A DNA stretch of 63,609 bases, counting the filler, from Candidatus Nanoarchaeia archaeon (GTDB lineage: Archaea > Nanobdellota > Nanobdellia > Woesearchaeales > DATDTY01), in assembly GCA_035290625.1 (NCBI GenBank). It is 5 parts of 5 records of this genome, joined end to end, with 100 filler letters (N's around TTAATTAATTAA, not from the genome) between each part and the next. Parts side by side here need not be neighbours in the genome. Positions count along the whole stretch, not along the records: positions 1 to 15,498 come from DATDTY010000030.1; 4 more parts are not named here. One strand, 5' to 3'. The position numbers and the translations under genes were made by a program. Below are positions 1,652-32,302 of this stretch, piece after piece (position 1 is the stretch's first letter; each line of letters opens with the position of its first letter). The notes under the pieces are model-generated. The model ran no database searches, was not told the origin of the DNA, and saw only the letters and a program-made list of their open reading frames with translations.

Positions 1652-2524
1652 TCAGCTTGCCTTCTCAGCTTTATTGACTGCAGCAACGGATGCCAGGGCA
1701 ACTTCAATCTGGTCATCCCTGGGATTTCTTGTTGTAATCTTCTGCAGCCAGAGCCCCGGTAGAATGAAAGGCCTCATCAGCGGGTTTTTTTCATGTTTTG
1801 CCGCAAAGCGCAGAATCTCGTAGGAGATGCCTGCGATTACCGGAATAAGGATTATCCTCCCAACAAATTGAGCGAGGATTGATGAGCGGGTCACCACAGA
1901 GAAGACCAGTATAGACAGCAGGAGAACTATAAAAAGAAAACTTGTCCCGCATCTTGGATGGATGGGCGAAAACCTTCTGACGTTAGCGCCCGTAAGCTTC
2001 ATATTAGCCTCATGGCAGTGAACTGCCATGTGCTCTGCACCGTGGTATTGGAAGACCCTCTTCACATCTTTGAATACCGAGATGATGAGGAGATAGAGAA
2101 GGAACACTATAATCCTGAATATCCCATCTATGACGTTAAATGCTATCCCTGGCTTTGAAGTGATGATCTTAGTGAGGACAAGGGGAAGGAAAATGAACAT
2201 TGTGATTGCTGCAACGACTGCGAAGGCGACGGTAAAGAAAATCTCTTTTTTTGATGCCTTCCCTTCTTCCTCTTCTGCCTGGTTGGAACTCCAAATCATA
2301 GACTCCATCCCAATAACCATCATATCATAGAGGTTGATGATTCCCCGGATGAATGGGACTTTTGCTGAAGGCCGGGGCCGCAGCTTTTTTACCATTGTCA
2401 GGATTTTCCCCTTCTTCCGCACAGAGACCGCATAATGGGCAGGGCCTTTGATCATCACGCCTTCAATCACTGCCTGACCGCCCAGAAGAAGCTTTTCCTG
2501 CGCCACCTGGCCAAAAAGTTCCAT
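1652..2524 (-). CDS. DUF1385 (YqhQ-like) membrane protein
   Basis: GGQAVIEGVM, FQYHGAEH and HPRCGTSF motifs. Confidence 0.9.
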   Translation of the reverse strand: MELFGQVAQEKLLLGGQAVIEGVMIKGPAHYAVSVRKKGKILTMVKKLRPRPSAKVPFIRGIINLYDMMVIGMESMIWSSNQAEEEEGKASKKEIFFTVAFAVVAAITMFIFLPLVLTKIITSKPGIAFNVIDGIFRIIVFLLYLLIISVFKDVKRVFQYHGAEHMAVHCHEANMKLTGANVRRFSPIHPRCGTSFLFIVLLLSILVFSVVTRSSILAQFVGRIILIPVIAGISYEILRFAAKHEKNPLMRPFILPGLWLQKITTRNPRDDQIEVALASVAAVNKAEKAS

Positions 2525-2599
2525 GGTCCTTAATAACTTTGTGATTGATAGAAAGTTTTATAAATAGTTACTCTATAGTAGTAATGTATCGGTGGCAAA

Positions 2600-3532
2600 A
2601 TGTATACTACGGAAGAACTTGGAGAGGCACAGGATACCTTTACTGGAAAAAGAAGGTTATCTACCCATGAAGTTGAAATTGTAAGACACGAATTTGGAGA
2701 TAAACAAATACCAAATTACATCTACCCATTCGTTGGACTATTTGCCACTAATCCTGATTTATATAAAAAAATATTCGTGGATGAGAGAGCACAGAACTAT
2801 TCTTTATTTGGATTCTTCCCTGAAACTTTTGAACTGGTTTACGGCAGTGAAGTTTCACCAGCACTATCTTTTGATGGTGGAAATAGGGGTATCGTCGGAA
2901 TTATTAAACACCCTACAAAGAAAGTTGTTATTAAACCTACACAGAACAGCAGAGAACATGAAGTTGCACAGATAGCTGATGAATTGGGAGTTGGTCCAAA
3001 ACAATATGCAAGTTTAGACGGATTTTTGTCTGAAGAATTTATTGAAGGTGATTTATTTTCAAAATTAAGAGGGGATAGAACCTCTGCTGATACTATGTAT
3101 ACTGCGGGAACGAGAATGGGGGAGATTCTGACAAAGCTGCATTCTAGAGAAATTTATTACAATGATACCATCATTACTGATGATTTAGGAAAGTCTCATG
3201 TTATATTCCCAGAAGCCTCAGTTGCAGTTTTATTTGATTACGGTGTTGCATTAAGGCTTGATCAACATCCAAACTTCACTGATGAAGAAGTGTATAACTT
3301 CGCTAGAACATTTCCAATGGTTAGTATGTTCTTAGGACTGCAACCATCACAAGAGCAAATACAGAAACTTGTGAAGCAATATCGTCCGCAATTACAGACA
3401 GCTACAAAAGACCAAATTACGGCTAGAGACATCAATTTTATAAATGAGGGTTTAACATTTGCGGCATATAGGCTAGGGAATCATGTTGTGGAACCATTCT
3501 TGAAAGGATTCAAAGAGACCTATCGCGCATAA
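2600..3532 (+). CDS. Protein-kinase-like fold protein
   Basis: VVIKP lysine, GVGPK, EEFIEG hinge, LHSREIYYND catalytic loop, LFDYG (DFG-like); AT-rich. Confidence 0.7.
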   Translation: MYTTEELGEAQDTFTGKRRLSTHEVEIVRHEFGDKQIPNYIYPFVGLFATNPDLYKKIFVDERAQNYSLFGFFPETFELVYGSEVSPALSFDGGNRGIVGIIKHPTKKVVIKPTQNSREHEVAQIADELGVGPKQYASLDGFLSEEFIEGDLFSKLRGDRTSADTMYTAGTRMGEILTKLHSREIYYNDTIITDDLGKSHVIFPEASVAVLFDYGVALRLDQHPNFTDEEVYNFARTFPMVSMFLGLQPSQEQIQKLVKQYRPQLQTATKDQITARDINFINEGLTFAAYRLGNHVVEPFLKGFKETYRA

Positions 3533-3582
3533 GGCGCCAGAACAACTAGAATTTCTCAAACGCTTCGTAGCCCAATTACAGA

Positions 3583-3605
3583 TAACATTGGAATTCCTGT
3601 TAAAT
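3583..3605. repeat. Short attC-like fold (empty form)
   Basis: TAACA-TT-GGAATTCC-TGTTA followed by AAT, giving a GTTAAAT (GTTRRRY) core. Confidence 0.55.
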
Positions 3606-3631
3606 ACTTTTCCCATACGCAGTGTGGGAAA
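3592..3631 (+). repeat. 40-bp perfect direct repeat, copy 1
   Basis: AATTCCTGTTAAATACTTTTCCCATACGCAGTGTGGGAAA, identical at 4055-4094; contains hairpin TTTCCCATAC-GCA-GTGTGGGAAA. Confidence 0.95.
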
Positions 3632-3646
3632 CCTGCGTCCGCAGAG

Positions 3647-3880
3647 TAAATCTGGAGTCCGTCTATCCAATGAGTGATAGCGATACAACAAGACAAAGTA
3701 TCAGGGGGCAATTTTTACTATGTTTTTACAATAGTCCAAAATCTAATTACAGACTCTTTAGATGCATTACCTGATGCAATCCCCTTATTAGTTGTAATAT
3801 TGATCTTCTGGATATTGTTTAGAGAGAAGAAGGAATAATAAGAAATTGCCCCTATTCTATTCTTTAGGACTCCAGATTTA
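3647..3880. repeat. Two-layer nested inverted-repeat cassette
   Basis: TAAATCTGGAGTCC 3647-3660 / GGACTCCAGATTTA 3867-3880; GGGGCAATTT 3705-3714 / AAATTGCCCC 3843-3852. Confidence 0.85.
3674..3838 (+). CDS. Possible 54-aa membrane peptide or captured gene 3' fragment
   Basis: Open frame ending ...DAIPLLVVILIFWILFREKKE-stop just before the inner right repeat; GTG start uncertain; not in ORF track. Confidence 0.3.
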   Translation: MIAIQQDKVSGGNFYYVFTIVQNLITDSLDALPDAIPLLVVILIFWILFREKKE

Positions 3881-3884
3881 TTGA

Positions 3885-4068
3885 AACTAACATCGGAATT
3901 TAACGAAGTTTTTTCTCCTCCAAAATCCGAGCCTCGAAATTCTCGGCATCCCTGAGAATTTCAGAGTTGCGAGGATTTTGAGAGATGAGAAAAAATTTGG
4001 GAGAGCAGGGGAAAACGCTTGGCGTTTTAGCGTCAGCGACCGAATTTCTCGTTAAATTCCTGTTAAAT
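3885..4068. repeat. Long attC-like branched palindrome (filled form)
   Basis: CTAACATCGGAATTTAACGA...TCGTTAAATTCCTGTTAAAT with two unpaired bases; internal arms TTTTTCTC/GAGAAAAA, CAAAATCC/GGATTTTG, GAAATTCTC/GAGAATTTC. Confidence 0.7.
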
Positions 4069-4094
4069 ACTTTTCCCATACGCAGTGTGGGAAA
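4055..4094 (+). repeat. 40-bp perfect direct repeat, copy 2
   Basis: Identical to 3592-3631. Confidence 0.95.
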
Positions 4095-4273
4095 ATTTCG
4101 ACCGAAAAGTAAAATTTCCATTTCTAATAGATTCTGCCGAAGGCAGACTAAAGTTTAGGGGGAGTTCCGTTCTATCTAGCTCGAAGAGCCTTAGAGAACA
4201 TAAATCTGGGGGACAATTTTAACACATCAAAGGCGAAGCCTCTTTCAGTAAAAGAATTAAGGGGAGTTCCGTA

Positions 4274-6634
4274 TTATAGAGTTGTTATCATTCTAGCTTG
4301 TAAAATAAACGGATTATTATCTTTTATGGCATATTCAATATCCATAGGCATATTGTAATGTTCCTCAATTTGTTTGCCTATTTTTGCCATTTTCAAAATA
4401 AGTTCTGTATCTAGATTAAATAACTCTTTATTTGTATGAATCTTCATATTTTTTTTATCTATCAGATAGCTATTAGGTGTAGTTTTACCAGAAACTAATG
4501 ATTCGCCCAATCCTTGAACAGCCTCAATAAGCATATGTTTCTTATTAACAGGATCAATGGTGAACATAACTCCTGCAAAATCTGCTTCTATCATCTCTTG
4601 GACAACTACTGATATTGAAACGTGTTCATGTTCAAAATTGTTTTTTACTCTATAGTATATTGCTCGTGATGTAAATAAAGAAGCCCAACATTTTTGAACA
4701 GAATTGATAAGGCTTTTTTCATCTTTGACATTCAAATAAGTATCTTGTTGCCCAGCAAAGGAAGCTGATGGCAAGTCTTCTGCTGTAGCGCTGCTCCTTA
4801 CAGCAACATTTTTTGAATTTAATTGTAGATAGTTAGTGATTATATCTTTTTTTAATTGTTCTGGGAAATTTTGTTTGATTATCAATTCTCTAATCTTCAT
4901 AGAAGTATTGTTTAGATGATTGGAATCCTCAACATCTAGATTTTTCAATAACGCAATAATCTGTAGTTTAATATTGGCAGTCTTTAGGAAGGAATCATAA
5001 GCATTAACTGAAATACAAAATCCATTAGGCACAGGAAACAAATTGAACATTTCTCCCAAATTTGCGCCTTTTCCTCCTACTGTAGCAATATCATTTTTTG
5101 AAATGTCCTTAAACCAGAAAATATTTCCTTCCCTAATTGTTGAAATGGCTTCCGCTGTAACTTTTTTTCTGACTTTGACTATGCGTTTTTCTAGCTTTAT
5201 TAACTCGTTAAACTCTTCCTCACTAATTCTAGTAACTATTCCTTTATTTGCATCTAATTTTATTAAGTCGCCGTCATCAAGAATCAATGTTGCGATGCTA
5301 CAGCCTACAATACAAGGCAAACCAACTTCTCTGGAAATTATAGCAGCATGACAGGCTGCCCCGCCCTCATCTGTAATTATTCCTTTAACTTTTTTAACTA
5401 ATATCATCATTGTAGGGTTAGTCATTCCAGTAACAAGAATATCATCCTTACCTAATGTTTCTGCTATTGCAAATAACTTGTTTGGGTCATCTGCTTTGAC
5501 AATTCTTGCCTTTCCTACAACCATGCCTTTATTGGCAATGGTTCCAGTAAAGGATTTAGTATTCTTATCAGGAAGATGCGGATCAAGTATCTCTTTTTTC
5601 ATCAATAATGCACTTTCTCCGCTATAAGACTTAATTTTGCTATCTGAAAAATACAGTAAAAAATAGGCTTTTCTGTTTTGTAGTTCATCTGATGATATTA
5701 TTTTATTATTAATCAGCTCAATAATTTCTTTATATGTATAAAACATGTAGACATCCCTAACAGAACAGTTTGCTTTTTGTGCCATCTTCTTGTAAAATGG
5801 AAGCATATGAAAAACTTCTCCATTCCAACAAGATTTTATGAGGAGCCTGGTCAAAGCGGCGTTTTGTATAAACCATGCCAACTCCTTAATTTCTTGATTA
5901 TTTAAATTAGCAAAAATCTCGGTTTGTTGTTTTTTAATATTGCTCCTTCTTTTATTCGCTTCTTCAATTTCTTTATCTATTTTTTGCTTTGTAGTATGCT
6001 CAACTCTATTTTTTGCCCATTTAAGAGCATCATCCTCAGAAGTGATATTTGCTAATAATATTGAATATTTTTTTGCGTGCTCAAGAATAGATTTTTCATC
6101 AGGATTATCTAATAATTTTCTCCATTCGATTAATTCTTTCAGCAATATATCATTTTCATGAGGTGTAGTTAATATTTGATAATATTCTTCGCTTTTAGTA
6201 GGAGCAGAACTATCTAGTATTTGTTTAAGTTTAGTTTCTACAGCAAGGGTTACATGAGCGGTGGTGGTTACAAAATGTGCATAAATTCTCCTTAGATTGA
6301 AGATGTATGTTTGGTACAAGGTTACTAATTGTTCTCCTTCTTTATCCAGATTTAGTAAGAGGGAATTAGCAGCTTTCCAGTAGTCTGTTACCTCTTTCTT
6401 TTGCCTTTCCAATGTTAATTTCGCAGTTTCGTGATTGAGAAGTTTTTCCCCAGCTGTATTCATTTGTTTTATATCTTCATCAGTCCAAAACCATTGACCA
6501 TATCCATCTTTGTTCCAGAAAATTATATTTTTTTGAACACAACCGATAATATCTTTATCAAAGATGTGCCTTTCCATCTGCAAAATATGCTTATTAATTG
6601 GCTGTTCTCCAGTTGCATAAAGAATGTATATCAT
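4274..6634 (-). CDS. PEP-synthase/rifampin-phosphotransferase-like dikinase with permuted domain order
   Basis: Helical N-domain, His swivel domain (TDEGGAACHAAIISRE), C-terminal ATP-grasp (VGGKGANLGE, AVRSSATAEDLPSASFAGQQDTY); no pyruvate-binding barrel; ATG 6634 preferred over 6724. Confidence 0.85.
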   Translation of the reverse strand: MIYILYATGEQPINKHILQMERHIFDKDIIGCVQKNIIFWNKDGYGQWFWTDEDIKQMNTAGEKLLNHETAKLTLERQKKEVTDYWKAANSLLLNLDKEGEQLVTLYQTYIFNLRRIYAHFVTTTAHVTLAVETKLKQILDSSAPTKSEEYYQILTTPHENDILLKELIEWRKLLDNPDEKSILEHAKKYSILLANITSEDDALKWAKNRVEHTTKQKIDKEIEEANKRRSNIKKQQTEIFANLNNQEIKELAWFIQNAALTRLLIKSCWNGEVFHMLPFYKKMAQKANCSVRDVYMFYTYKEIIELINNKIISSDELQNRKAYFLLYFSDSKIKSYSGESALLMKKEILDPHLPDKNTKSFTGTIANKGMVVGKARIVKADDPNKLFAIAETLGKDDILVTGMTNPTMMILVKKVKGIITDEGGAACHAAIISREVGLPCIVGCSIATLILDDGDLIKLDANKGIVTRISEEEFNELIKLEKRIVKVRKKVTAEAISTIREGNIFWFKDISKNDIATVGGKGANLGEMFNLFPVPNGFCISVNAYDSFLKTANIKLQIIALLKNLDVEDSNHLNNTSMKIRELIIKQNFPEQLKKDIITNYLQLNSKNVAVRSSATAEDLPSASFAGQQDTYLNVKDEKSLINSVQKCWASLFTSRAIYYRVKNNFEHEHVSISVVVQEMIEADFAGVMFTIDPVNKKHMLIEAVQGLGESLVSGKTTPNSYLIDKKNMKIHTNKELFNLDTELILKMAKIGKQIEEHYNMPMDIEYAIKDNNPFILQARMITTL

Positions 6635-6650
6635 CAGAATAAACAAAAAG

Positions 6651-7301
6651 CTACATCTTTTTAAACATTTCGGCAATAGCTTTTTTTCTAGTATCCATAA
6701 AATATTGTACTTGTTTAACTGCACCTGGAAGTCCGCTTTTTAGATTATCTTCCAGATCAGTCTCGCCAACGAGTTGTCCATAAGTCATTAGAGGAATACT
6801 AGTTGAATTCAATACTTTTTTTAATTTTCCTAATGTTTTTTCATCCATTCCTAATACCATTCCCAAATTAGGTTTTTCTTCGAATGGGGTATAAATGCCA
6901 GGATGATACTCTTTAGGTATTCCAGCTTGTTCAAGAGCAATATTACGATATGCTGCTATCATTCCATGAACAATAGGTCTAACTTCAGAATAGAACAATC
7001 CCATCTTAGCTGAATCTTGGTCGCTTAACTCTGAGGAAGTATGATATGCTCCCAATAATGCTTCAATTTCTTTCTTTTTATCTACTCTTACTAATCCATA
7101 ATGTAATCCTGCCTCTAATACGTTAACCATTGTATCCAATGCTACGTTGTTATCAAGAATGTTCCTAACATTTATACCAGCACTTTCTATTGCAATTTTG
7201 TCTGAATCTTGCTCATGTAAGGCATATTTCATAACAGCTTCATAAGTAGGACTACGCTGAACGTTTGCAGAACATACTCCTAATGCAATTTGTGGGTTCA
7301 T
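6651..7301 (-). CDS. Low-molecular-weight PTP/arsenate-reductase-like protein
   Basis: N-terminal VCSANVQRSP (CX5RS P-loop) followed by IESAG. Confidence 0.7.
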   Translation of the reverse strand: MNPQIALGVCSANVQRSPTYEAVMKYALHEQDSDKIAIESAGINVRNILDNNVALDTMVNVLEAGLHYGLVRVDKKKEIEALLGAYHTSSELSDQDSAKMGLFYSEVRPIVHGMIAAYRNIALEQAGIPKEYHPGIYTPFEEKPNLGMVLGMDEKTLGKLKKVLNSTSIPLMTYGQLVGETDLEDNLKSGLPGAVKQVQYFMDTRKKAIAEMFKKM

Positions 7302-7321
7302 AAGAGCACTTATGCAGTTTG

Positions 7322-7337
7322 AGTATATAAATGTTTC
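7322..7337 (-). promoter_or_regulatory. BRE/TATA promoter of cassette cargo
   Basis: Minus strand GAAACATTTATATACT about 25 nt upstream of ATG 7301. Confidence 0.6.
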
Positions 7338-7662
7338 TTTTTTTATTACTAATAAGTAGTATCAATGCCGAACTCCCCCATCAGTTTAAAATTGTCCCCC
7401 TTCCAAATTATATATTTCTGCGTAGCAGACTATATGTGCGAAGCACGGAACTCCCCCGTTTTTTTCGTCTAAGAAATGGAAATTTTATTGTATTTAACTC
7501 CCATTCAACGAAGCAAAATCTCTTTTAATAACCGATTGAAACACAACATGTGCAGTATGTCATTCTAAGCACAGACGGCTTTCATTGGTTGCAGTGGAGT
7601 AACTCTTTTCTGTAAACAATGCTGTGATGATCAAGAAGAGCAACCCGATTCTTTCATGCGCC

Positions 7663-8304
7663 TTACCGCTTCAGTAACACAGCCCTTACAGGAGCTCCGT
7701 TTCCATCCTTAATCTTCATCGGGAAGCCAATAAACGTATAGACTCCTGGCCTGGCTTTTGAGAGGTCCAGCCCTTCAAATACAACGATTCCTTTAGGGAT
7801 CAGGATGTCGTGGGCAGCAGGCTTTGGAGAATGAAACTGCTGCACTGAAAGGTAATCGATGCCAACAGCCTTGACCTTCTTCCTTGCCAGAAATTCTGCT
7901 CCGGAATTTGCAAGAAAAATAAAATCCTTCCTGAATCTATCCAGCTCCAGGCTAGAATTTCTGGTTTTTAGCAGGATAATCTCCCCTTTCTTTATTCCAT
8001 GATCTTTAATGTGCTTCTCCTCAATTCCTTTGCCAAATGGAACTGACGTGGTGTCAATAACCGTGCATCTTCCATAACATCTGGAGAGCGGAATCCTGTC
8101 AACGCCCGGCTTGTTGTTGTTGATATGAAGAGGGCTGTCAACATGGGTTCCGGTATGCGTTCCCATACTGATAAGAGAGGTGTTTGAAGAGTTTCTTGGG
8201 ATCGTGGCTACAGCAGCCATAGAAACCTCGGGATTTCCAGGGTATACTGCCATCCCTGCAGCTATTGCCCTGGTAATGTCAATCAATCTCTTTTCATTTT
8301 TCAA
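7663..8304 (-). CDS. Cyclase-family (kynurenine formamidase-like) metal hydrolase
   Basis: HTGTHVDSPLH, GIDYLS, GNGAPVRA; TTG start after GGAGG, overlapping gnd stop. Confidence 0.9.
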   Translation of the reverse strand: MKNEKRLIDITRAIAAGMAVYPGNPEVSMAAVATIPRNSSNTSLISMGTHTGTHVDSPLHINNNKPGVDRIPLSRCYGRCTVIDTTSVPFGKGIEEKHIKDHGIKKGEIILLKTRNSSLELDRFRKDFIFLANSGAEFLARKKVKAVGIDYLSVQQFHSPKPAAHDILIPKGIVVFEGLDLSKARPGVYTFIGFPMKIKDGNGAPVRAVLLKR

Positions 8305-19289: not shown

Positions 19290-20894
19290 TTATTTATAAA
19301 TCTTTGGGTTTCGAACAGCCAGATACGCAACTACACCTAAAACTCCCAGCAGGATGATGTTTATTGCGGCAAAAAGACGGCTTGTGGAGCCTAAAAGCCA
19401 GCCTTTTGTTTCCCACGATGACGAAATACTATCTGTCTCATCTGGTTCAGCAGGCCTGGATTCCTGGCCTAATTGAGGGGCTTCAGCAGCTTCTTGAGGA
19501 ACAGCTTCCAGAGAAGGGCTTTCTTCTTGGGCTATTCGCTCTGCCTCTTCAACCATCTCCTCAACCACAGTCTCATATTCGAATCTTTGTGTTAGACGCT
19601 CCCCAAATTCTGTGGCATACGCTATCTGGACAAGATAGCTGTACACCCCCCTCTCAGCAGTGTAGGAGAAGCTTGCGATATCCTTATCCTCAATGAGTTC
19701 TCCCAATGTGATTTGCGCTGGCTGAATTCCAGGGATTGATGTCTCGGTTGTGATCTGTACATCCCTCATCTTTTGTGATGATGGATTGTATACTGTTGCT
19801 GCGAAATCAACCCTCTCGCCTGGCTGCGCTCTTTCTTTTGCCTGGAACCTGATGCCTGGTTCAGGTGCAAGTACGGTGAGTGGGATCTCAATGTTTTGCT
19901 CTTCTGCGAATCCATTGATGCGGCTCTCAATAACTGCTTTTATAGGCGTCCTGCCTGAGCGCGTTCCTGAGAAATTGACAACAAGCAGCTCTCCCTTTTT
20001 GCTATCGAGAGATATCCTCTTTGTGAGTTTTGTGCCGTCCTTCTCGAAGCCGTGGCTTCGCATTCCAAATACAGTCCCTGGCGGAAACATAAGCTCAATG
20101 GCTCCGCTGGACTCATGTTCCGGGTTGGTATTGGTGATGTTGATCTCAAGCCTGTTTGACCTTCCGATACTGCTTGCATTCTCTGCAAGCCTAGGGACAG
20201 CCTGTATTGCTGCATTGAATACCTCGATCTTTGACTTCAGCGAATCAGTTTTTGCGCTGCTGCCATCAAAATAGACAACTTCTGCAACACTGTCATTTTT
20301 TCCGCCGGATTTTCCAGCAATAGTGTATCTGCAGGCATGCTCCTGCCCAGCCTCCAACGCTCCTTCCCACTTGTATACGCTGCCTGAAAGCGAACAGCCT
20401 TCTACATTGATGGTAAGTCCTATTGTCGAAGGATACCTGTCAACAAAAACAACGTCTGCTGCTTTCCAGTCTCCGGTATTCTTTAGTGCAACAGCAACAT
20501 CAGTCTCCTGGCCAATAAGCAGTGCGGCATCATCGATTGTCTTGGTGAGCTGGACTGATGCGGTTTTTGAATAGATGCTGAGCGACGCCTCCCACACATT
20601 TTTGTGCGTGGCATTCGGATAGGTGAAATAGATCGAGTTCAGGCAGAACTGGATATTGCCCTCCTCTTTGCACGAAGCATTTCCCACAATCATGCTCTTC
20701 CCAGCAGATTCAAGAAGAACCTCAGCAGGAGCAGCATATCTGTCCTGGTCTGAGAACCTAATCCTATACGCAGTGCCATCAACAGTAATGTTGTTGCCTG
20801 ATGCATAGGTTCCTGTGGAAATCAGCTGGGCTCCGAGAGCCGTTTGAGCCAATGTCAAAAACATCCAACCCAGAAAAAAGCACCTCTTGAGCAT
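19290..20894 (-). CDS. Secreted, C-terminally anchored surface protein (DUF11/Ig-like)
   Basis: Signal peptide, LKNTGD-type strands, acidic linker, C-terminal TM. Confidence 0.7.
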   Translation of the reverse strand: MLKRCFFLGWMFLTLAQTALGAQLISTGTYASGNNITVDGTAYRIRFSDQDRYAAPAEVLLESAGKSMIVGNASCKEEGNIQFCLNSIYFTYPNATHKNVWEASLSIYSKTASVQLTKTIDDAALLIGQETDVAVALKNTGDWKAADVVFVDRYPSTIGLTINVEGCSLSGSVYKWEGALEAGQEHACRYTIAGKSGGKNDSVAEVVYFDGSSAKTDSLKSKIEVFNAAIQAVPRLAENASSIGRSNRLEINITNTNPEHESSGAIELMFPPGTVFGMRSHGFEKDGTKLTKRISLDSKKGELLVVNFSGTRSGRTPIKAVIESRINGFAEEQNIEIPLTVLAPEPGIRFQAKERAQPGERVDFAATVYNPSSQKMRDVQITTETSIPGIQPAQITLGELIEDKDIASFSYTAERGVYSYLVQIAYATEFGERLTQRFEYETVVEEMVEEAERIAQEESPSLEAVPQEAAEAPQLGQESRPAEPDETDSISSSWETKGWLLGSTSRLFAAINIILLGVLGVVAYLAVRNPKIYK

Positions 20895-20937
20895 AGGGTG
20901 TTTTGAAGAATTGGGTTATATATAGTTATCGATGTCT

Positions 20938-21384
20938 TCACGGCACAACCGTAATCAACTGGCCTGTGGTAGATTTTGCTAATCCAGCAGAGCCGACAGA
21001 ATAGTCCACTGCCAGACTCCCTTTTATCTTCTGTTTAGGATTAAGGCCTGCGGAGCATTCCAGTATAAAATCCGCCTCGCTGTCAGAACCAACAACTCCT
21101 CCTGCAGCAGCAGCGCAAGAGGGATCATCCAATGTTATGCTGCTCACAGAAACAGGATCAGGAAGGATATTCCTAAGCCTCAATGTAACTGTATCTGCAC
21201 TCGAACTCGTAGAAAACTCCTCGCAAAATATCCCGGAACTGGTCGCAATCAAGCATTTCTCAGGCAAAAACTGCTCGGCCTTGTTCACTCCGAAATATGC
21301 AAGCGCACCGATAGAAATAAGGACAACCAAGATGGCCCAGCCATAGGTCATCAAGAACTCCATGGCAGCCTGTCCTTTTCTCAT
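20938..21384 (-). CDS. Class III signal peptide pilin-like protein, paralogue 2
   Basis: MRKGQAAMEFLMTYGWAILVVL. Confidence 0.85.
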   Translation of the reverse strand: MRKGQAAMEFLMTYGWAILVVLISIGALAYFGVNKAEQFLPEKCLIATSSGIFCEEFSTSSSADTVTLRLRNILPDPVSVSSITLDDPSCAAAAGGVVGSDSEADFILECSAGLNPKQKIKGSLAVDYSVGSAGLAKSTTGQLITVVP

Positions 21385-21416
21385 AACAACTCACACCACG
21401 TGCTGTATAGTATCCA

Positions 21417-21491
21417 TCAATTGATATACCTCAATTATATGTCTCAAATTATATATCTCAATTATGTACTGTATACTTAATCAATTATTAA
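21417..21491. repeat. AT-rich imperfect tandem repeats
   Basis: TCAATTGATATACC, TCAATTATATGTC, TCAAATTATATATC, TCAATTATGTAC, then TCAATTATTAA. Confidence 0.65.
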
Positions 21492-21562
21492 TCACTTTTA
21501 TATCCTCATTATCAATCATACTAAATAAACCTTCTTAAAACAAGAATAAAAAGAAAAAAAAT

Positions 21563-22021
21563 TTATGGAACCGTAGTCACAATCTGCCCTGTCGCGCTCT
21601 TTGGAAGCCCAGACCCTGCCGCTGAACCGGCATCAAAAGCAACGGTGATTGCTCCTTTGATCTTGTCGCCTGATGTAAGGCCTCCTGCGCATGCAAGCAC
21701 AAAGTCTGCGGTTGCATCAGCCGCAATCTGCGTGTCTGCTGTTGCGAAGCTACAGCTTGGAGCGCTTATCGTGATAGAATCAACCCAGGCACTCTCAGTG
21801 AGGATATTATGGATCCTCAGCGTTACAGTATCTGCGGATGCGCTTGAGGAGAACTCATCACAGAACAGCCCAGATCCTGTGCTAATCACGCATTTCTCTG
21901 GCAGGAATCTATCAGGGCTCAGCACTCCGAAATAGGCAAGTGCCCCAATCGCAACAAGAACAACCAAGATGGCCCAGCCATACGTCATAAGGAACTCCAT
22001 GGCAGCCTGTCCTTTCTTCAT
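21563..22021 (-). CDS. Class III signal peptide pilin-like protein, paralogue 1
   Basis: MKKGQAAMEFLMTYGWAILVVL; SD GGTGA; similar along its length to 20938-21384. Confidence 0.87.
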   Translation of the reverse strand: MKKGQAAMEFLMTYGWAILVVLVAIGALAYFGVLSPDRFLPEKCVISTGSGLFCDEFSSSASADTVTLRIHNILTESAWVDSITISAPSCSFATADTQIAADATADFVLACAGGLTSGDKIKGAITVAFDAGSAAGSGLPKSATGQIVTTVP

Positions 22022-22257
22022 ATCATCACCTCTCCTCTTTTTGTAAATAGCATTATTCCTATTCTTGGCAATTCCCCTATTTAAATCTTTTGATTAAAAC
22101 GAGGCGTTTTTGAGTCCGGCGCCAACCGAGGCTCCATTTTCCATAGGACCGAGCATCCAGACCTGAGCAACCTGGGTCGCTCGGATGAAACGAATTCAGG
22201 CAGCAAAAAAGAAACACTTAAAAAGAGCAGGAAATCTTTACCCTCAGGACATACGAA

Positions 22258-22974
22258 ATGATTCCACGAAAAATATTCTTTACCAAGGGCGTTGGTGTCC
22301 ATAAGCATTATCTGCAAAGCTTCGAGCTTGCGCTACGCAATGCAGGCATTGAAAAGGCGAATATTGTGAACGTGTCGAGCATTTTTCCGCCCAATGCCGA
22401 GGTTATCTCCAAAGAACAGGGGGTCAAATACGTGAAGCCCGGTGCAATAACCTTCTGCGTCATTGCACGGAATTCCACAAATGAGCCCAACCGACTGATT
22501 GCCGCTTCCATCGGAGCAGCGATCCCGGCTGACAAAGGGACATACGGCTATCTCAGCGAGCACCATCCAAACGGAGAGACAGAGGACAAGGCAGGGGACT
22601 ATGCCGAAGACCTTGCGGCAACGATGCTTGCAAGCACGCTTGGCCTCGAGTTTGACCCTGACAAGGCATGGGATGAGCGGAAGCAGGAATTTATGATGTC
22701 GGGGAAGATTGTCAAGACGCGCAATATCACCCAATCTGCGCAAGGAAATAAATACGGCTTGTGGACATCCGTCGTTGCTGTTGCAGTGCTCGTCACAGAC
22801 CAGATGATTGCAGACTATGCTGCAATGCAAGAGGCAGCCCAGGCAAATTCTGAAAACTTGGTGAAGGAGGATGCTCCCAAGGACAGCGCATTGAAGAACA
22901 GCATCAAGAAGCCCTTTTCCCTTGCCCGCTCTGTTTTTGGAAGGAAAAAGGAGCAGCAGCCAAAGCCGGCGTGA
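22258..22974 (+). CDS. pdaD: Pyruvoyl-dependent arginine decarboxylase
   Basis: [19 protein letters not shown] self-cleavage site, YGYLSEHH. Confidence 0.92.
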
Positions 22975-31471: not shown

Positions 31472-32302
31472 ATGGACGTACCGGAATTGATAAGGAAAGA
31501 AGGGCTAAGGAGAGGGTTAAGCCACAAAACAATAAGGACTTACAGGCAATGCGTCAGGAAGTTCTTCGGCTGGTTCAAAAAGGAGCCGAATGAAGCAAGC
31601 AAAACTGACATTAAAGATTATCTGGACCTGATGATTGAGAAAGGCGCATGCGGCAGCACCATTAATGTGAACTTGAACGCATTAAAGTTTTTTTATGGCA
31701 ATGTTTTACGCAAGCGGCTGATGATCAATATAAGATACTCAAAAACGCCTAAAGCGCTGCCAATCGTTTTGACTAAAGAAGAAGTTGCAATGCTGATAAA
31801 TTCAATAAGCAATCCCAAGCACAAGCTTATGGCAAAGCTTATGTATTCTGCCGGGCTTAGAGTAAGCGAGCTTGTTCATCTCAAGCCGGAAAATCTTGAC
31901 ATCAGGAACGGCTATGGATGGGTAAGGCATGGCAAGGGCAACAAGGACAGGATGTTTGTAATAGCGGAAAGCATTAAGGAGGAGCTGGCTTCGTACATAG
32001 CAAAAGAATGCGTGTCTTCCGATTCTTATATCTTCAGAGGATTCAGCGGGCACATCACCACAGCAACTGTAAGGTCTGTAATAAAAAATGCAGTGAAGAA
32101 TGCCAAACTATCCAAGCATGCCCACCCGCACACTTTAAGGCACAGCTTTTCAACGCATCTTATAGAGAACGGAAGCAGCGTTGCAGAAGTCCAGTCATTG
32201 CTTGGGCACAGCAGCGTAGAAACAACAATGATCTATCTCCATATCGCCTCTCCCAAAATGATTGGCGCAAAAAGCCCGATTGACAGCCTGCCTATCCTCT
32301 AA
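31472..32302 (+). CDS. Tyrosine recombinase, integron-integrase/XerD-like
   Basis: SAM-like N-domain (SHKTIRTY), GLRVSE, GKGNKDR, HPHTLRHSF, LGH, TTMIY, C-terminal KSPIDSL; no IntI-specific insertion. Confidence 0.93.
   Translation: MDVPELIRKEGLRRGLSHKTIRTYRQCVRKFFGWFKKEPNEASKTDIKDYLDLMIEKGACGSTINVNLNALKFFYGNVLRKRLMINIRYSKTPKALPIVLTKEEVAMLINSISNPKHKLMAKLMYSAGLRVSELVHLKPENLDIRNGYGWVRHGKGNKDRMFVIAESIKEELASYIAKECVSSDSYIFRGFSGHITTATVRSVIKNAVKNAKLSKHAHPHTLRHSFSTHLIENGSSVAEVQSLLGHSSVETTMIYLHIASPKMIGAKSPIDSLPIL

Follow-up and report, generated by a model that had tools for sequence, protein, structure and literature searches.

Anatomy of a nested-arm gene cassette

The DNA analyzed here is a window of 63,609 nucleotides from Candidatus Nanoarchaeia archaeon (Woesearchaeales, GenBank assembly GCA_035290625.1), composed of several contigs joined by runs of N. 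Within a low-GC island (GC of 0.31-0.38 at 2500-7500, against about 0.46), two genes and their putative promoter are enclosed by pairs of inverted-repeat arms nested one inside the other. The arms lie on contig C30 and a candidate tyrosine recombinase gene lies on contig C33 (Table 1). We refer to the source genome as G000, to its contigs as Cn, and to individual loci as Ln. We consider it likely that the nested repeats are the two ends of one mobile cassette and together form one split recombination site, in an integron-like gene-capture system run by an Xer paralog. On the best reading, the window cassette is the first in an integron-like array left stranded in a Woesearchaeales-type archaeon.

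Table 1. Coordinates of the cassettes, recombination sites, arms, modules, and genes in the window
Feature	Position	Strand	Description
Main cassette, 3,607 bp	3891-7497	+	Predicted crossovers 3890/3891 and 7497/7498; attC-like hairpin at left end
attC-like hairpin	3880-4070	+	Neighbor's arm 3880-3890; 8-nt spacer with 2-nt bulge 3891-3898; inner arm 3899-3909; variable cloverleaf 3910-4045; returning strand 4046-4070 with 6-nt spacer
attI-like double-stranded site, 11-6-11	7487-7514	+	Arm 7487-7497, spacer 7498-7503, arm 7504-7514; no recombinase gene follows
Layer 0 arms (recombinase core), fifth outer pair	4063-4070 / 7490-7497	+	Outside A
P and Q hairpins	4071-4109	+	P loop cGNAg; bulged between layer 0 and A; near-copy at 3608-3646
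Arm A / A'	4110-4125 / 7472-7487	+	Complementary 16/16
Module X1	4126-4157	+	GNA hairpin 4133-4147; direct copy of 7401-7444
Arm B / B'	4158-4170 / 7445-7457	+	Complementary 13/13
Module X2	4171-4207	+	GNA hairpin 4179-4189
Arm C / C'	4208-4222 / 7386-7400	+	Complementary 15/15; rarer C variant, covarying with C'
Module X3	4223-4260	+	GNA hairpin 4231-4241
Arm D / D' (innermost)	4261-4275 / 7364-7378	+	Complementary 13/15 (9 exact, one G.T, one mismatch)
Module X1'	7401-7446	+	Two GNA hairpins, 7417-7429 and 7436-7446; 5' of B' as X1 is 5' of B
Putative cargo promoter	7323-7345	-	TATA box and A-rich upstream stretch, read from sequence
Cargo gene 1, 216 aa	6651-7301	-	Weak LMWPc (PF01451) match at N-terminus
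Cargo gene 2, 816 aa from GTG or 786 aa from ATG	4274-6724	-	PEP-utiliser mobile domain, then PPDK_N
Second cassette, 305 bp	3586-3890	+	Minimal hairpin 3583-3602; P/Q; private arms 3647-3660/3867-3880; X2-like module; inner arms 3705-3714/3843-3852
Probable third cassette, decayed	2600-3585	+	310-aa kinase-like gene (weak Bud32-like match); degenerate right end
Candidate recombinase (C33)	31472-32302	+	XerA-like; no I2 insertion; cassette-associated clade

The original prediction, made from the sequence of the window, described four arm pairs, mirrored in exactly reverse order, wrapped around a TATA promoter and two genes, with no transposase and no target duplication. The places and the nested reverse order of the arms proved right, although D is an imperfect pair; the promoter and both genes are present, and neither a transposase nor a target duplication was seen at the cassette. 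The last stop codon, said to overlap the innermost arm, lies at 4274-4276, 4 nt away from the exact D arm, and overlaps only the D extension. The description was incomplete, as it had missed the outer pair at 4063-4070/7490-7497, an attC-like hairpin at 3888-4065, and a neighboring cassette at 3586-3890 with two arm pairs of its own. A collinear nested chain through the two ends comprised 53 exactly complementary nucleotides, whereas 300 shuffles averaged 11 and never exceeded 34.

The spacers between the arms had been called unrelated. This holds for their inverted alignment, since 177, 727, and 1000 of 1000 shuffles scored as high as the opposed spacers did as inverted copies. It does not hold otherwise, as the left spacer 4126-4157 repeats the right spacer 7401-7444 in direct orientation (0 of 1000 shuffles as good) and arms B and D are one motif. 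A genome-wide search for the arms found the B/D motif again elsewhere in G000, while arms A and C were unique to this locus within the genome.

That the arms are one decayed long inverted repeat, or an assembly artefact, is scarcely credible. Unitigs break at the end repeats, and the full stretch is not covered by any one contig. Nevertheless, the inner 3.2 kb, from 4209 or 4216 to 7443 (C, D, cargo, D', C'), form one unitig in all four runs, and 35 distinct complete units have the same layout; together with the failure of the spacers to align in inverted orientation, these findings already largely refute this explanation. Summed contig depth at 3500-4260 and 7270-7520 was roughly 6 to 50 times the cargo depth in the four runs, which suggests that many other organisms of the same samples carry these ends.

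A family of cassettes across the order

The left nest was matched in 92 of 301 genomes of the order, a tally that includes G000 and the unpublished genomes G131 and G209. A 26-nt right-end pattern retrieved 61 loci in GTDB genomes, with titles mostly naming Woesearchaeota, Nanoarchaeota, or Pacearchaeota; several of the loci with other titles were the same contigs as genomes of this order. A related right-end pattern was found at 34 metagenome loci. Viral contigs, plasmids, and phages gave no match to the queries used.

A left partner lay within reach for 23 of 62 right ends, the window included. With L047 and the metagenome set added, 35 distinct complete units with an A-type end were obtained, 247-9,724 nt long, carrying up to seven open reading frames (ORFs) and varied cargo; a few shared genes. 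The 30 units that gave a chain had between one and six paired layers. The variable nesting depth and cargo that the original prediction proposed to look for in related genomes (here one to six layers and 0.25-9.7 kb) are thus present. The order of modules was fixed: hairpin site, core, P, Q, A, X1, B, X2, C, X3, D, X4, E, and cargo, followed by the partners in reverse. Tandem arrays of cassettes were found in L085/L089, L095, L107, L123, and L125.

Two further loci show the range of contents. L057 (G020:C4) is an empty cassette of 109 bp, consisting of a core, P/Q, and one arm pair without a gene. At L097, two adjoining A-type cassettes carry a similar gene, with the same N-terminus, in opposite orientations.

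Complementarity of cassette ends and predicted single-strand folding

Cassette ends matched their own partners. Pairing between own ends in 24 units reached 709, against 428 ± 33 with other ends, a difference equaled in 0 of 100,000 permutations, although the units are related and permutation p-values are therefore overstated. Arm C was of the same type at both ends in 23 of the 24 units that could be typed (4 C/C, 19 G/G, and 1 mixed; p = 5e-4; 11 were untyped). L073, L125, L085, L109, and L237 had wholly different inner arms that were still complementary. In 28 cassettes located between two hairpin sites, the first arm was usually private to the cassette and paired over 9.96 nt with its own partner, compared with 5.58 nt after permutation.

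The end regions also showed a strong strand bias: 86 of 105 hairpins had cGNAg or cGNNAg loops on one strand and none had the complement. Loops of this kind are exceptionally stable in DNA and differ from the GNRA loops of RNA. When the ends of the window cassette were joined in silico, they folded into one stem in which all five arms (layer 0, A, B, C, and D) paired and extended the hairpin that capped them; this computed circle had 78 cross-end pairs, against 41 with the neighboring cassette. The original prediction offered, as one of two explanations, a giant stem of single-stranded DNA that loops out its cargo. This idea is supported by the covariation of arms within units, by the DNA-type mini-hairpins on one strand, and by the pairing of the five arms in the computed circle.

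Long-range pairing with compensatory changes would fit a structured RNA as well, such as a leader, an intron-like RNA, or a retroelement. We regard this as very improbable. The hairpins close in GNA triloops or in GNNA tetraloops whose third positions do not fit GNRA, and no Rfam family matched above its cut-off (one match, with an E of 0.93). The cargo runs both ways, with 52 ORFs on one strand and 25 on the other, so that no single transcript would carry the GNA strand.

Hairpin sites and cassette boundaries

Cassettes were separated by hairpins of 78-178 nt, of which 47 distinct long sites were collected, or by minimal forms of 19-21 nt. The long-site set drew on input that included the G131 and G209 loci, and the detector demanded a 2-nt bulge and left other forms uncounted. 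On folding, a long site presents an 11-nt arm, then a paired spacer of 6 bp interrupted by one 2-nt bulge, then a second arm that resembles the dif-like palindromes lying upstream of XerA genes. A plain 6-bp spacer was present in 26 of 27 sites adjacent to a recombinase gene, and the window site at 7487-7514 has the same geometry.

The consensus core of attC sites is GTTRRRY/RYYYAAC. In the window cassette, an attC-type core at 4063-4070 is complementary to 7490-7497. Across 28 cassettes, the five variable core positions matched perfectly with the cassette's own far end in 14 cases and with the adjacent end in one. This own-end match points to a crossover at TAA|C, at which circularization would reunite the cassette's own ends as in integrons. 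Consistent with such a boundary, the homology of the cassette shared by L080 and L116/L122 stops at the core site. Two joints in the contigs, 4133>7418 and 4116>7416, were considered as circle junctions and rejected, being short-sided and fitting either the X1 direct repeat or other organisms.

The other explanation in the original prediction was successive insertion of elements into one another, in which each layer would be a separate non-autonomous transposon (a miniature inverted-repeat transposable element [MITE] or a Tn3-like element with G-run ends) that is still singly mobile. Several observations suit it: depth varies from one to six; X2 resembles X4, although in only three of six five-layer units (z above 3); right-hand modules repeat in four of six; the same cargo with its inner arms occurs within two different outer wrappers (L125 and L132); and an inner piece without outer layers lies at G000 C67:25202-25312. 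Still, the layers keep one order and register, target duplications are missing, and many arms belong to a single unit only. The context of arm A (P/Q hairpin, TTG..TAAC) was constant in 7 of 7 complete units, which were found from the left end alone and not selected on the right flank. The layer missing from L116 relative to L080 looks like a deletion between repeated arms, a Y1 transposase was present at only 1 of 62 loci, and no unit bounded by B..B' or C..C' and flanked by a target duplication has so far turned up outside core-bounded cassettes in a search that was not exhaustive. We therefore find singly mobile layers highly doubtful: as an account of present-day mobility, insertion conflicts with the constant A context, the missing target duplications, and an exchange unit set by the outer Xer-type core. 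As history it may survive, given the variable depth, the repeated modules, and the cargo shared between wrappers.

Recombinases associated with the arrays

A tyrosine recombinase gene was found on the same strand, at most about 310 nt past the end, at 9 of 62 right ends (L101 and L131 being one genome); arrays ending at a recombinase include L085/L089, L095, and L120. The gene points away from the array, and a site with a 6-bp spacer lies just upstream of it. From the other direction, we examined 89 of 134 recombinase matches, namely the best-scoring ones plus G000:C48, without G111 and one truncated hit. A core was present within 450 nt upstream in 18 of the 89 loci and never on the opposite strand. 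A dif-like palindrome was present upstream in 15, and no locus had both dif and a cassette end. All 15 dif-linked genes fell in one XerA clade of 40 rows (SH-aLRT 97) in a tree that was a quick version only; a cassette end was upstream of none of the 40. The cassette-linked recombinases fell outside this clade in several groups, where 18 of 49 had a core.

Both G000 paralogs (C33 and C48) belong to cassette-linked groups, with C48 as sister to L121, and a similar 6-bp site was seen by eye upstream of the C48 recombinase. The original prediction named the recombinase at 31472 as the one to test. It falls in the cassette-associated clade, but it lies on a different contig from the arms, and the C48 paralog is at least as good a candidate. 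A likeness between the sequence upstream of the 31472 gene and arm A' was not supported by the end profile. A count of GNA hairpins at the top 30 recombinase loci (nine upstream on the same strand, three on the opposite strand, no hairpin site) was nearly uninformative.

None of 25 array-adjacent recombinases reached the cut-off of 265 bits for TIGR02249, the best scoring 213.5; five just passed the archaeal XerA model. The G000 paralogs scored 196.5 and 180.2 against TIGR02249, and the 31472 protein has 16 residues where IntI4 has 58. The system seems to be driven by a plain Xer-type recombinase.

It is unlikely, in our judgment, that the cassettes are instead moved by the housekeeping XerA at or near the chromosomal dif site, in the manner of integrative mobile elements exploiting Xer (IMEX) of the CTX phage type, with the adjacent recombinases incidental. 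The folded site has an inner arm similar to those of the dif-like palindromes upstream of XerA genes, and many cassettes, including that of the window, have no recombinase beside them; association with a gene also leaves the acting enzyme unproven. However, cassette ends are tied to recombinases outside the XerA clade (18 of 49, against 0 of 40 within it), and dif and cassette ends never share a locus. The G000 assembly has no XerA-clade gene among its three PF00589 matches and no convincing dif palindrome.

Two observations on recombinase genes stand apart. G000 C10 encodes a divergent PF00589 protein of 415 aa. A repeated 9-nt motif, CACTGG[A/T]CA, possibly a binding site, occurs upstream of recombinases that include L133-L140, L146, and L152; many of those with the motif are of the 31472 group and some are not.

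Proposed mechanism and evidence against it

Comparison of sequences between loci shows the anatomy, the covariation of arms, the cassette boundary, the association with recombinase genes, and the strand bias. In the mechanism that we propose, the GNA strand would become single-stranded during replication or DNA uptake. A dedicated Xer paralog lacking the I2 helix would cut it at the TAA|C core and release the cassette as a circle. In the circle, the cassette ends would lengthen the stem of the hairpin by five more helices (layer 0, A, B, C, and D); the GNA modules would bulge out and the loop would contain the cargo. The folded site would recombine into a double-stranded attI-like site by one strand exchange followed by replication (replicative resolution). 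Layers would be gained by capture and lost by deletion between repeated G-rich arms. Least certain is what the inner layers contribute: they may keep the two ends of a long cassette close to each other, shield DNA that is single-stranded, or serve as binding sites of a second protein.

A related possibility is that only the outer core serves the recombinase, and that the inner G-arm and GNA modules serve a second enzyme or binding protein, either HUH/RAYT-like or with a cassette-building activity, by which new cargo is taken up at the innermost stem. The modules are conserved in sequence across many families, X1 lies 5' of both B and B' in two-fold symmetry, and in many units the innermost arms are private. 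At 13 of 28 gene ends the stop codon falls no more than 10 nt from the innermost arm, a figure that has no control and that hints at capture there. Against this, no candidate gene is linked to the modules, the Y1 genes of G000 look like IS200-type elements with their own ends, and cassettes without inner modules are common. We think a second activity distinctly unlikely; it is compatible with a split Xer-type site and does not exclude one.

Several observations weigh against a cassette with a split site moved by an Xer paralog. Half of the cassettes (14 of 28) lack a perfect own-end core, in some because of missed in-between sites. No circular junction, excised circle, or empty site of the window cassette was found among the joints listed for the contigs of four runs, a weak negative given that contigs drop rare forms, and none of the 34 metagenome loci had a terminal repeat. 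No recombinase adjoins the window array, and the end profiles gave no match upstream of either G000 paralog. Among unselected non-XerA loci, 31 of 49 had no upstream core, several of them having little upstream DNA. L081, L092, L110, and L129, all A-type, paired poorly between their ends, and the fold energies of the two strands of the window cassette were nearly equal (-119.5 and -116.3 kcal/mol). The overstated permutation p-values and the quick recombinase tree count here as well, and the conservation of G-rich arms and modules suggests a putative binding protein.

Cargo of the main cassette and other cassettes in the genome

The promoter motif of the cargo (TATA plus A-rich stretch) recurs on many contigs. 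Cargo gene 2 scored under all 25 NCBIfam cut-offs shown. The 216-aa cargo gene had homologues in 2 of 400 other genomes at 36-40% identity; no cassette ends were found around the homologues in these two genomes, where the cargo operon is unwrapped. The cargo of the main cassette was not found in any other cassette. No RNA data set was listed as containing the sequence, a result with no bearing on expression.

The second cassette of the window contains a frame of about 41 codons without a start (3713-3839), which ends in a hydrophobic stretch and a stop that directly precedes the inner arm; it resembles a captured 3' piece of a gene. To its left, the segment 2600-3585 is probably a decayed third cassette, for which no left end was recognized. 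Just past the attI-like site, a short broken frame with a CxxCH-like motif (7540-7680) is perhaps a gene remnant.

Further cassettes or remnants occur in G000 on C75, C50, C43, C67, and C15. The C75 cassette (about 20550-22760) is complete: three private arm pairs enclose two convergent genes resembling a restriction-modification pair, and a degenerate 6-bp site closes the cassette. The stranded piece at C67:25202-25312 has the order X2-arm-X3-arm and immediately precedes a gene resembling methionyl-tRNA synthetase; 3.2 kb of downstream sequence showed no partner end. At least eight copies of a second repeat family, in which two GNA hairpins stand 20 nt from each other, are present in G000 (C9, C14, C18, C27, C53, C56, C75, and C79). 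The hairpin-site detector found 4 sites genome-wide, against 0-4 in shuffles, which is not significant alone, and a profile of the P/Q modules had no match in G000.

Relation to integrons and other mobile elements

The comparison with integrons used PMC9668308 and its preprint (10.1101/2022.02.06.479319), PMC8138268, PMC8946536, and PMC4792948. Like integrons, including the archaeal ones (PMC9668308), the present arrays consist of tandem cassettes split by folded imperfect palindromes, with GTT/AAC cores and complementarity between the cores of a cassette's own ends. Further common traits are a recombinase at the end of the array pointing away from it, extra-helical bases, and strand asymmetry. 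A site of the attI kind beside an integrase gene is found in relatives (18 of 89 loci and 9 of 62 ends), whereas that of the window has no adjacent gene.

The differences are as marked. The recombinases lack the IntI-specific I2 insertion (0 of 25 at the TIGR02249 cut-off). Sites of attC type, as described in PMC8946536, have an unpaired central spacer between the R and L boxes together with extra-helical bases; the sites here have instead a dif-like 8/6 spacer with a 2-nt bulge, shrink to minimal forms of 19-21 nt, and continue into a stem of up to six more helices split between the cassette ends. Integron cassettes generally carry short ORFs in one orientation (PMC9668308), whereas many of those found here contain several genes, reach 9.7 kb, run in either orientation, and bring their own promoter. 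The same source counts 539 attC sites. Our long sites were unlike the eight of these 539 that were compared (Data S9), and the only Nanoarchaeota attC compared was of the classical type; some of its Nanoarchaeota attC clusters could overlap with the present system. The original prediction knew of no named class with this layout. The layout is in fact that of an integron cassette array, yet the system is integron-like in its working without being a member of the integron family, as the recombinases lack the I2 domain and the sites lack attC geometry.

With Xer/dif systems, IMEX (the folded single-strand attP of CTX), and archaeal XerA, the system shares an 11-6-11 site, folded distant arms, and a recombinase without I2. 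According to PMC4792948, the CTX stem has no extra-helical bases and borrows the host XerCD; the arrays here differ from IMEX in their bulged stem, in having recombinase paralogs of their own, and in not being tied to the XerA-linked dif palindrome. Inverted short repeated motifs that flank variable cargo, with no enzyme inside, are also a trait of MITEs and of Tn3- and Tn7-like ends, from which the present ends differ by the missing target duplication, the co-changing or private arms, and the tyrosine-recombinase core at the boundary. Strand-specific single-stranded DNA hairpins with very stable loops recall repetitive extragenic palindromic (REP) and REPIN sequences and IS200/IS605 (HUH) elements. 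Unlike these, our cassettes have no linked HUH gene (Y1 at 1 of 62 loci), carry kilobases of cargo, and stand in arrays with a recombinase. No published description of the system was found in the literature searched, most subscription papers being outside its reach; the system is real and widespread, and apparently without a published account.

How integron cassettes are created is, to our knowledge, still an open question, and the zipper formed by the cassette ends offers a handle on it. A Xer-run cassette system may also show how integrons originated. PMC4792948 poses the problem of how the I2 domain and attC sites could each have arisen in the absence of the other, and names CTX integration, with its stem free of extra-helical bases, as the only comparable reaction. 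Bulged folded sites in arrays beside recombinases without I2 make this question testable with a 270-residue protein and short oligonucleotides. A bolder reading, which we offer tentatively and hold to be improbable, is that of a living proto-integron lineage. In it, a Xer paralog without I2 would already recombine bulged single-stranded sites, and the nested G-arm and GNA modules would be a cassette-building platform on which each innermost capture writes a new arm pair, so that depth would equal rounds of capture. If true, it would supply the missing intermediate of the chicken-and-egg problem of I2 and attC. If our reading of the cassettes is right, about a third of the order's sampled genomes contain parts of a platform for gene capture; IntI-based screens would miss it, and it moves units of several genes, up to about 10 kb in size.

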